Source: a virus
Lineage: Duplodnaviria > Heunggongvirae > Uroviricota > Caudoviricetes
Length of the DNA: 3,941 bases
Virus record (IMG/VR): IMGVR_UViG_2534682295_000019
Direction: 5' to 3' (one strand)
Part shown: one piece after another, positions 1-3,000 of the stretch
Numbering within the stretch: position 1 is the first letter of the stretch
Layout: each line of letters opens with the position of its first letter
Program-made: the position numbers

Positions 1-3000
1 TCAGTTCCCCAGGCGCTCCATCAAAAACACAACCAGGCAGTAAACACCCACAACAGCAATAACAGCCAGAGCGCCTTCCATTACCAGTGAAATATCATCC
101 GACATATTCCCTCCCTTGGTGTGAATCCCGGCGAACGTTTTTACCCCCACCGACAAATAACATATACTAGAAAAGCAATAGCTATAGCAACGCCTGCAAA
201 TGCATCTGGCCGGCTCATTGGTTCTCCCCCTGTGTCGCTTCTACTGCGATCTGACTGGCGTATTCGTTAATGGTAACGATAAGTTCTTGCTCGGCCTCAT
301 CCAGACAACTACCGATACCTCGCCTGTCCACTTCAGAAGCATCGAAATCTGCACGAAGCCTGGCGACCTTCAGGATTGCGGACAACACCTCATCAGGGAT
401 TGCCGGAGAGTTGGTTGACGTTTCCGAGATTATCCGAAAATTATTGGTTGACGAACCCTTATTTTCCCGAAAGTTTCCAGCCTGAAGCATGGCGGCGCGG
501 TGACACCAGATAATCCAGCCAAGCGCCATATCCCATACCATGTAATCTCTATCGCCATTTTTTGCTCTGCGGCGATCTACAGATTCTCCGAAACGCTTCT
601 CCATAAATAATTCATAGGCTGCTCGTTCATCCGATACTGCTGCCAGTGATGCCAGCGCAATCCGTGCCAGCTCTTCCGCTTCTTCTGCTGGAAGCACAAC
701 GTTGCTACCCGGTCCGTATGTTTCGCGCCAATGCTGGATTGTCAGCAGTCGATCTTTGGTAATAGTGGTCATAGCTATTTCACCTTAATCTCAACATTTC
801 GCAGCTTTAGCTCTACTGGCATGTCTGACTTTCCTGTTAATGCTAATGCGAGATTTTCTGGAGTAATGAGAGCAGTTATTGTTTTCCCCATCGCCAGACG
901 AATAATCATTCGTATTTCGCGATCGTCACATGCTCCTGGTCGAACAATTGATATTTGTCCGTTCATCTCACTCTCCTTTGATGCGAATGCCAGCGACGCG
1001 TAATGCGTGTTCTAGGTCAATCAGGTAAAGCCAACTGCCATTTTCTTTAGGTATCATGACATGTCGCTCATCTGCATTTATCGGGTGTCCATATCGAAGG
1101 TCGTAGCGAGTCGGTAATTGAACTTCCCGCGCTTCCAGTTCAGCAATACGCTTGCTCCCATCAGAGATAACGCCTTCGTAATACTCACGCTGCTCGTTGA
1201 GTTGTGATTTTGCTTCTTCCAGTCCATCCAGCAAATCAGCGATAATATCCGCTTCCCGATGACGGATGTGACGCTTAAACGCAGCAAGAGCCGCATCACA
1301 ATCCCGTTCAGCATTTGGGCTGTCCGGGGTAGCCTGATACCACGCCAGCGTCGATTGATAGTTTTGTGCTGCCTCACGCAGTGCCTGATAGTCAATCTTG
1401 CCCACTGGCTGCCTCCTTTGCCGGGATTTCTAACTTTTGAGTGGTTGTATCAAATTCAAACAACTTAACCACGTCATCAAACAGGACATAATCACCATCA
1501 GGATCTTCAGTCATATCAGCGCCACAATCCTGACCGCACGAGTCGCAACCTCCCATATCAAGCTCGTATCGCTTCAGGTTCGCGATATTTGATAAATTCA
1601 GCGCCAGTATAGCCAGATCATTAACCTCGTCTGCGATATACCCTGCACCATGTCCATACATTTCAATGCGGGATATGATTTCTTCTACACGTTGTTTTGT
1701 GATCGTCATTTTTCTCTTCACTCCGATATACAAGGATTACTACACCCCCTCTGCTGATTGCGCGAGCTGGATCCCCTGGTTCCATGCCGTCAATACCGAA
1801 GGCTTCGAAAAATGCATCTATTGCCTTTTGGCGTTGCTCCTGCTTACGGCGTTTATTCCATTTTTTCATGAACAACAGTGACAGCCATCGTCCGCTGCAG
1901 AACATGATGTAGAAATAACCAAGGAGCGCTAGGCCGGTGTTCAGGGCTGTATCGATCGTTATCGTGGTGTTGATGTTCACTTCACACCTCTCTGTTTGTT
2001 GATAAGTTCAATATCCTGCTGGCAACTGGCGCAAGCTCTGCATCCACGAACAGCCAGGCGTCGCCGCTCATCTATCGGATCGCCACACTCGCAACAATGA
2101 GTAGCAGATGGGGCATTACTATCGGATTTGTATTTTTGCAGGGAGAGATTGCGCTGCAATTCTTCGATTTCAGCGGCGTTGTCGATGATATCTGCCATTT
2201 TCCTTTCCTTCAGGCATGAAAAAAGGAGCCGAAGCTCCTTTGGTTTTAGAATTCGAATTGCCTTGCCCGCAGGCTTTTCAGCATTGGTCTGGCCCGCTGA
2301 ACTACGAAACTCGACTGGTCAAGCCGTGCCGCCTCTCTCAGTAGCACATCTCTGTTCTTCGTCACCATGTAGATGGTCTCAAACGCAATGTCATACAGCT
2401 TGTTCGTGTATGAGGAGTTCAGCTCTTTCATGATCGGATACAGGTGTTTGCTGAGGTCCTGGGCTTTTTCCATCCAGAGTTGCATGTAGCAGAGGAGGAT
2501 GATTTCCTCGTCTGTGAATTGTTGCTGTGGTTCTGCTTGTGCCGACTGCATGTTGCGAAGTTTCTTTTCGCACTCGATGAAGTATCTGCGTATCTGTCGG
2601 CCTTTTTCGTTACGCTCTACCATCGCCGTTTCTTTGGCTGTATCGAGGGTAAGGTGGTAGTCTTTTTTCCCTCGCCCATAACCTATTTCCCGTTTCTGGG
2701 AAATAGCTATATAGTCCTGATTTTCAACGAATCCGTACTCTTCAATACGTTCTGTAATCCACGATGCAAAGCGTTTACCTACTCCAAGAAAAGTATGTAA
2801 ATCACGGGCATTAACGAGAAGAGTGGTTTCGTTGGCGATAGTGCCGTTGAATACGGGGATGAGTTGACTGGTCATGATGACCTCCTTATTTGTTTAGTTT
2901 ATAACCGCCAGTTAGTAGCTGGCGGTCGGGTGTCAACTGAGCCAAATAAGAAGCTCTGGGCATATTCCCCTTGCGGGTGTTGTATTACGCCTCTCCACCC

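Follow-up and report, generated by a model that had tools for sequence, protein, structure and literature searches.

A second traR/orf73 gene, adjacent to an antirepressor gene, at the attR end of a VT2-Sakai/Sp5-type Stx2 prophage

The stretch of DNA analysed in this work, hereafter the window, comprises 3,941 nucleotides of the IMG/VR virus record IMGVR_UViG_2534682295_000019 (Caudoviricetes) and contains, on its minus strand, a 73-codon gene encoding a small zinc-finger protein of the TraR/lambda-Orf73 family. Positions 1706–3941 are 99.8% identical to the right end, with its flanking chromosome, of the Shiga toxin 2 (Stx2) prophage VT2-Sakai/Sp5, a match that bears out the phage origin proposed in an earlier note made from the sequence alone. 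The end of an Sp5-type prophage sits in wrbA and adjoins ymdF, and the phage genes of the window are all located on the minus strand, directed away from attR and into the prophage. The gene under study and its ribosome-binding site are placed as follows:

1977–2198, minus strand: traR/orf73 paralog of the attR-proximal or 'B' type, an ATG-to-TGA open reading frame (ORF) of 73 codons encoding 73 amino acids (aa)
2201–2210, minus strand: purine-rich ribosome-binding site AAGGAAAGGA, read from the sequence, 2–7 nt before the traR ATG

The ribosome-binding site is identical in phage 933W. The encoded protein, which the earlier note had described as a TraR/DksA-type C4 zinc finger, matches the Pfam family PF01258 (zf-dskA_traR) over residues 33–64 with 31.8 bits (E = 1.5e-7), above the gathering score of 24.9 bits, so that the hidden Markov model search recommended in that note returned a significant result. 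A second match, to PHROG 54 ('DksA-like zinc-finger protein'), covers residues 1–71 (E = 5e-24). The protein is identical to ECs1250 (ORF90) of Sp5 from E. coli O157:H7 Sakai, and its RefSeq name already reads 'TraR/DksA family transcriptional regulator'. A phmmer search of the sequences in the PDB retrieved E. coli YbiI and F-plasmid TraR, and a profile built from 65 homologs and compared with the PDB matched TraR over residues 5–69 (E = 5.6e-9). Furthermore, an unannotated 73-codon ORF located between orf61 and ea22 of phage lambda corresponds to Orf73, whose 73-aa product aligns with the window protein without gaps and with 71% identity.

The window protein contains six cysteines (C35, C36, C38, C53, C56 and C59), four of which, C35/C38/C56/C59, make up a CxxC-N17-CxxC zinc set aligned with the cysteines of TraR and YbiI. 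Residues D3, D6 and A8 of the DxxDxA tip are aligned with D3, D6 and A8 of TraR, the pair R46/R47 with TraR R48 (rim helices) and R49 (beta'Si3), and E64 of the C-terminal helix with TraR E66. Within the alignment of 65 homologs, conservation is 90% or higher at every hallmark residue, A8 and E64 being invariant, and the extra cysteine C53 reaches the same level. Moreover, D3, D6, A8, C35, C38, C56, C59, R46, R47 and E64 are kept among 155 database homologs, and every TraR-family hallmark named in PMC9239242 is present in the window protein.

An AlphaFold2 model built on the family alignment, with a mean predicted local distance difference test score (pLDDT) of 81, exhibits helices at residues 8–28, 44–49 and 57–70, the C-terminal one with pLDDT above 90. 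When this model was compared with the PDB using Foldseek, the best match was TraR in its complex with RNA polymerase (RNAP; 6n57_M, probability 1.00, template-modelling (TM) score 0.54–0.55 over 71 aligned columns), followed by YbiI and DksA; the structural comparison with TraR that the earlier note had proposed thus points to the same family. The coiled-coil tip that the note had added as a family criterion does not apply, since TraR-type proteins have a single N-terminal helix, and the lack of a coiled coil therefore does not speak against membership. In summary, family profiles, motifs and fold agree, and the window gene is a genuine member of the TraR/lambda-Orf73 family, far beyond chance.

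The locus itself is already known, and is that of an ordinary conserved second Orf73 copy, because the gene is annotated, structures have shown in detail how the TraR family works (PMC6970531) and the two Orf73 sequences of 933W, orf73 and L0141, have already been mentioned together (PMC8614690). The description of its function as unknown was consequently overstated: lambda Orf73 has been characterised, L0141 has been noted in the latter study, and a block deletion including the gene has been reported (PMC5155283).

Phage 933W contains two matches to the window protein, namely the unannotated orf73 of its exo-xis region (71% identical) and L0141 (ST933Wp79), which lies near attR at the same locus as the window gene and is 92% identical. 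ECs1250 of Sakai Sp5, the identical protein, occupies this locus as well, and beyond position 1706, downstream of the gene, the window sequence differs from Sakai. The window gene is, then, the attR-proximal 'B' paralog, additional to the exo-xis orf73 in 933W/Sp5-type Stx phages. This B-type copy occurs in 175 of the 5426 complete E. coli genomes searched, among them O157:H7, O111:H8, O103:H2 and the O104:H4 outbreak strain, and in these 175 genomes the reading frame is unbroken and no hallmark residue is missing.

Comparison of the window copy with the lambda type yielded a synonymous divergence (dS) of approximately 1.5, which is saturated, a nonsynonymous divergence (dN) of 0.22 and a dN/dS ratio of approximately 0.15. 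Nearly all the amino acid changes are concentrated in residues 17–33, corresponding to the distal part of the N-terminal helix and the linker, and dN/dS with respect to the A-type (exo-xis) copy is approximately 0.1 in residues 1–16 and 34–73. This low ratio outside residues 17–33 therefore argues for purifying selection on the B copy at the elements that contact RNAP.

The 933W gene L0141 is a chimera in which nt 1–122 correspond to the window copy and nt 123–222 to the phage's own exo-xis orf73, except for one synonymous site (5' 122 nt and 3' 100 nt; stretch coordinates 5198–5419 for L0141, compared with 4873–5094), and thus the two paralogous blocks recombine within the orf73 gene. The C-terminal half of L0141 is accordingly that of the exo-xis copy, and the next gene downstream is Ea22-like. 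A C59Y replacement with loss of a zinc ligand, present in H0159 of VT2-Sakai (AP000422, 6272–6493), was discarded as a true variant, because the current Sakai chromosome encodes Cys at this position, as the window does; the change in AP000422 is probably an old sequencing error. A literature search by the locus names L0140–L0142 returned only unrelated papers.

The genes and predicted elements around traR are arranged as follows:

1663–1980, minus strand: DUF4752 gene (ORF; Pfam DUF4752, E = 2.5e-39), with a GTG start that overlaps the traR stop codon (GTGA)
2219–2241, minus strand: terminator-like hairpin between the ant stop and the traR start, predicted by RNA folding (8-bp stem AAGGAGCU/GGCUCCUU, UUCG loop, U6 tail)
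2246–2875, minus strand: ant, encoding a 209-aa antirepressor (Pfam AntA, E = 3.7e-27, and P22_AR_C, E = 6e-9; PHROG 377, E = 1.8e-98)
2916–3004, minus strand: Rfam sRNA-Xcc1 (RF02221) element in the 5' leader of ant (full-length cmscan match, E = 1e-11, 69.1 bits with the gathering score at 53)
3040–3091, minus strand: short leader just after the promoter, in which a CCGCA...UGCGG hairpin precedes U6 (RNA folds; resembles an attenuator or terminator)
3123–3094, minus strand: candidate promoter P_ant, sigma-70-like TTGACA-18-CATACT (promoter scan)

This arrangement does not agree with the placement of traR as the first gene of a small-gene module, as the earlier note had it: ant lies directly upstream on the same strand and ends 47 nt before traR, the promoter is found upstream of ant, and the spacer holds a hairpin. 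A scan of this 47-nt ant-traR spacer detected no promoter-like site, and an internal promoter between the two genes was therefore rejected. An Ant gene (68–100% identical) is located upstream of the B-type traR at the same spacing in 18 of 18 loci from viral contigs, and at least 121 complete E. coli genomes carry the ant-traR junction. The hairpin of the spacer aligns with the hairpins found upstream of the exo-xis orf73 in lambda and in 933W; that of lambda is the predicted terminator t2, and lower mRNA levels have been measured downstream of it (PMC4195576, Bloch et al.). A simple terminator scan did not call the 2219–2241 hairpin, and nothing was found in the literature search under the lambda terminator name tL3.

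P_ant is the only 10-of-12 match to the promoter consensus in the window. Homology with the Stx2 phage of O104:H4, which uses a different att site, starts exactly at its -35 element, and P_ant is therefore part of the ant-traR module, not of the att region. The promoter-leader block as a whole (3040–3123) is conserved in that phage despite unrelated flanks. Either of two CCGCA copies in the leader is able to pair with UGCGG ahead of the U6 tract, in an attenuator-like manner. The sRNA-Xcc1 match was also obtained in 933W and in a circular-form phage record, and a further hairpin lies directly ahead of the ribosome-binding site of ant. Since a study of the APSE phage located the sRNA-Xcc1 family upstream of a gene with an ORF6N domain, which is related to the N-termini of Ant proteins, the element may be a cis-leader of Bro-N/AntA/ORF6N genes and not a free-standing small RNA.

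SOS control of the ant-traR unit was also considered and rejected, as LexA-box-like sites did not occur beyond chance and none was located near the promoter. Literature searches by ECs and Z numbers retrieved only the Sp5 deletion study and a microarray row for Z1503, possibly the ant gene, with signal in an EDL933 lysogen and an approximately 4-fold higher value in an rpoS mutant (PMC2907692).

From this layout we propose, tentatively and at somewhat less than even odds, that traR is expressed from second position in an ant operon served by a promoter and structured leader of its own, and that read-through from pL provides a second input. The 50-kb circular-form phage record carries xis, int, attP, ant, traR and the DUF4752 gene on one strand. 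In an excised or infecting circular genome, traR would lie downstream of xis-int and in the same direction, and N-antiterminated pL transcripts would proceed via int and attP and through the preceding hairpin into traR. Such read-through would explain the presence of a t2-homologous terminator ahead of traR, given that t2 is located inside the pL operon of lambda.

Downstream of traR, the GTGA overlap of start and stop codons suggests translational coupling between traR and the DUF4752 gene. However, 60 of 80 DUF4752 loci lack a traR gene upstream within 2.5 kb, which rules out DUF4752 as an obligate partner of TraR. For the remaining ORFs on this side, all matches are to families whose function is not known, namely PHROGs 3126, 250, 1222 and 14306, together with an Ead/Ea22-like domain. 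A role as a defence system was dismissed, as none of the seven module proteins matched PADLOC. The suggestion in the earlier note that the module may act on host transcription stands for the traR product, which likely targets RNAP in view of its family matches, motifs and fold and of the experiments on the 71%-identical lambda Orf73 (PMC9239242); it finds no support for the downstream small genes, among which no transcription-related family match was obtained in Pfam, NCBIfam or PHROG.

The remaining part of the window corresponds to the attachment region and the flanking chromosome:

3413–3418, strand unspecified: attR core, at the junction of the prophage with the wrbA 5' remnant (coordinates from the VT2-Sakai annotation)
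3413–3464, minus strand: wrbA 5' remnant, with the N-terminus of WrbA readable in the sequence
3768–3941, plus strand: ymdF, flanking chromosome

Positions 3166–3212, between the att arm and the ant promoter, contain a palindrome with 22-nt arms (core TTAACGCAA ... TTGCGTTAA) whose RNA form has a folding energy of -27.9 kcal/mol (z = -5.9) and which is missing in the phage with the other att site; it could serve int as a sib/tI-like element or else be bound by a protein. At positions 3238–3293, which are 120–175 bp away from the att core, a 25-nt unit (TGTTTGGGGCA..TTTGGGGCAAAA) occurs twice in tandem and yields four TTGGGGCA boxes, which are probably integrase arm-type binding sites; 933W contains three such units. 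On the chromosomal side, the annotated start of ymdF at 3768 gives a product of 57 aa (window 3768–3941, plus strand), while initiation at an internal ATG at 3835, which has a strong GGAGG ribosome-binding site ahead of it, would yield 35 aa (MANHRGG...) with one match to the Pfam KGG repeat.

At the other end, positions 1–1705 diverge from Sakai, with the breakpoint at position 1706. No complete E. coli genome searched reached 80% coverage of the window, and its left part is therefore taken as a different mosaic variant. The breakpoint lies inside the 3' end of the DUF4752 gene (window 1663–1733, minus strand) and changes the C-terminal tail of the product, which is 105 aa long compared with 94 aa in Sakai; the following gene (PHROG 3126), whose start is likely the ATG at 1709, begins within the stretch that encodes this tail. 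Within positions 1–217, minus strand, two very short hydrophobic ORFs follow a gene for a 185-aa protein, one of approximately 25 aa (MSRPDAFAGVAIAIAFLVYVICRWG), whose start overlaps the preceding stop codon, and another of approximately 34 aa (MSDDISLVMEGALAVIAVVGVYCLVVFLMERLGN); both may encode small membrane peptides.

What the window protein does can be approached through its lambda homolog. Lambda Orf73 and four other phage homologs of TraR bind RNAP, complement a dksA deletion and inhibit the promoters rrnB P1 and rpsT P2, doing so at lower concentrations than DksA does (PMC9239242, Gopalkrishnan et al.). According to the same study, ribosomal-protein and rRNA promoters are inhibited by lambda Orf73, the D3A/D6A substitutions abolish its activity, and orf73 slows host growth and increases phage yield approximately 4-fold. 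Unusually, lambda Orf73 displays weak to no promoter activation, a property that the authors tentatively tie to its two extra cysteines (PMC9239242).

By analogy with these proteins, we consider it very probable that the window protein is of the TraR/lambda-Orf73 type and acts by binding RNAP directly, and not by binding DNA. Its N-terminal helix would enter the secondary channel of RNAP, bringing the acidic DxxDxA tip (D3, D6 and A8) near the active site, while the zinc-bound globular domain (C35/C38/C56/C59, R46 and R47) would rest on the beta' rim helices and beta'Si3, and the C-terminal helix (residues 57–70, with E64) would contact betaSi1. Binding in this way would destabilise open complexes at rRNA and ribosomal-protein promoters independently of guanosine tetraphosphate (ppGpp), and would slow ribosome synthesis and growth of the host during phage development.

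Several observations weigh against this proposal and the expression route that accompanies it. The Foldseek E-value is modest (6e-3) and the root-mean-square deviation is approximately 5 Å; free models of lambda Orf73 deviate from RNAP-bound TraR by a similar 4 Å (PMC8614690). Residues 17–33 were modelled with lower confidence (pLDDT approximately 62) and are strongly diverged from lambda Orf73 (dN approximately 0.9). The NCBIfam model TIGR02419 (C4_traR_proteo) scores 52.6 bits, below its cut-off of 59.7; the validated lambda Orf73 (54.7 bits) and the two 933W copies (54.8 and 56.6 bits) fall short of it as well, and because the validated protein does so, this cut-off is uninformative on function within the clade. 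The promoter and the terminator are consensus matches, and promoter-like sites are no commoner in the window than in shuffled sequence. Finally, an Sp5 mutant deleted for ORF86–90, including ORF90 (ECs1250), formed several-fold more plaques than the wild type, an increase that, to its authors, hinted at a regulatory function (PMC5155283); mutants in lambda orf73, by contrast, had a lower phage yield. As the mutant still formed plaques and lysogens (PMC5155283), the ORF86–90 block is non-essential. The deletion removed a block of five genes, and its phenotype is not assignable to ECs1250 alone; the net phenotype may differ from that of lambda orf73, or may come from other genes of the deleted block.

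Three other explanations were weighed. The first, which we regard as unlikely, holds that the protein acts chiefly when paired in a two-protein complex with a neighbour's product (DUF4752, Ea22-like or Ant) and that its effect on RNAP by itself is only a part of what it does. Its precedent is phage VP882, in which the product of an adjacent gene, QisA, binds TraR and greatly strengthens growth arrest, an antirepressor pathway controlling the pair (bioRxiv 10.64898/2026.07.27.740977), and by analogy a partner protein for the window TraR is possible. The overlap between the traR stop and the DUF4752 start, matched by that of orf73 and ea22 in lambda, fits such a complex, as does the joint exchange in 933W of L0141's C-terminal half and the Ea22-like gene that follows it, and Ant is always found upstream of the B-type traR. 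Nevertheless, most DUF4752 loci do without traR, as described above, the downstream gene varies for the same paralog (DUF4752 in Sp5, Ea22-like in 933W), and lambda Orf73 is active alone in vitro (PMC9239242).

It is very unlikely, in our judgement, that the attR-proximal copy is instead a redundant duplicate that contributes nothing itself and is merely carried along as the two homologous orf73-ea22 blocks of lambdoid phages recombine with each other. The chimeric structure of L0141 with the exo-xis orf73, the mosaic nature of a region in which the window leaves Sakai at 1706 and the dispensability for plaques and lysogeny of the block that contains the gene (PMC5155283) would all be compatible with a passenger. 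A passenger, however, would not account for an ORF kept intact with its hallmarks in the 175 genomes across O157, O111, O103 and O104, for a dN/dS of approximately 0.1 outside the linker despite a dS of approximately 1.5, or for the conservation of the ribosome-binding site and of the ant junction.

A main target other than host rRNA promoters, be it phage promoters, initiation of host DNA replication or the lysis-lysogeny decision, has the slimmest chance of all: F TraR is an activator at tra promoters, a link has been drawn between the orf73-containing exo-xis block of lambda and inhibited initiation of host replication, and deletions of orf73 have been reported as pro-lysogenic (both PMC9239242, PMC8614690), and the larger number of plaques after the Sp5 block deletion suggests a regulatory rather than a yield-boosting role, but lambda Orf73 had no effect on the lambda lytic promoters tested and only weakly reduced dnaA mRNA (PMC9239242), and the conserved residues are contacts with RNAP and not DNA-binding features.

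Direct action on RNAP at ribosomal promoters thus remains the preferred interpretation of the window protein, which amounts to an annotation-level result. If this paralog acts like lambda Orf73, Stx phages of the 933W/Sp5 type carry two ppGpp-independent off-switches for ribosome synthesis, one in the early pL operon and the other tied to an antirepressor gene, and this could affect the timing of induction, the burst size and thereby the output of Shiga toxin in enterohaemorrhagic E. coli. A more speculative idea, to which we would give little weight, is that Ant and TraR make up a self-contained cassette of the 'induce and reprogram' kind, equipped with a promoter of its own and with a leader under RNA-based control (the sRNA-Xcc1-like element and the attenuator). 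Such a cassette could fire in the lysogen independently of CI and pL; it would inactivate the repressors that co-resident lambdoid prophages encode and simultaneously bring the host into a stringent-like state independent of ppGpp. Independence from CI and pL is conceivable because the genes lie at the prophage end, cut off from pL. On the same view, the diverged helix segment (residues 17–33) could endow TraR with partner or target properties other than those of the exo-xis copy.

Among the known systems, E. coli DksA shares with the window protein the C4 zinc-finger domain, the acidic tip motif and the mode of action through the secondary channel, and its structures 7khi_M and 1tjl_A are the corresponding fold matches, of partial length and with TM scores normalised to the target of 0.25–0.28. 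DksA differs in its size of approximately 150 aa, its coiled-coil N-terminal domain and its need for ppGpp, whereas the 73-aa window protein has a single N-terminal helix. The window protein is therefore not a DksA ortholog, an assignment rejected because it has no coiled coil and half the length of DksA. F-plasmid TraR (PDB 5W1S, 6N57) is closer, as the two proteins coincide in size, three-part layout, D3/D6/A8, CxxC-17-CxxC, the RR pair and the glutamate of the C-terminal helix. Their identity is only approximately 28%, TraR has four cysteines and the window protein six, and TraR belongs to a conjugation operon and activates promoters, unlike lambda Orf73, whose activation is weak if any (PMC9239242). 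The TraR homolog of vibriophage VP882 resembles the window gene in its antirepressor-controlled induction and in its co-transcription with small genes of unknown function, yet VP882 is a linear plasmid-like Vibrio phage that relies on a cI-repressed PR promoter, in place of the ant operon proposed here.

The nearest characterised relative is lambda orf73. Both proteins begin with MADIID, share the segment SATHCCECGDPIDERRRL and the motif E44-x-x-R47-L48, and have the same six cysteines, the two extra ones being C36 and C53 (positions 38 and 55 of TraR). Both genes are preceded by homologous terminator-like hairpins and followed by a gene that overlaps their stop codon. They differ in residues 17–33, replaced nearly wholly in the window protein, and in the downstream gene, which is ea22 after lambda orf73 and DUF4752 after the window traR. 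They differ also in position: lambda orf73 is located between exo and xis, whereas the window gene is found across attP, near attR, behind ant with its own promoter.

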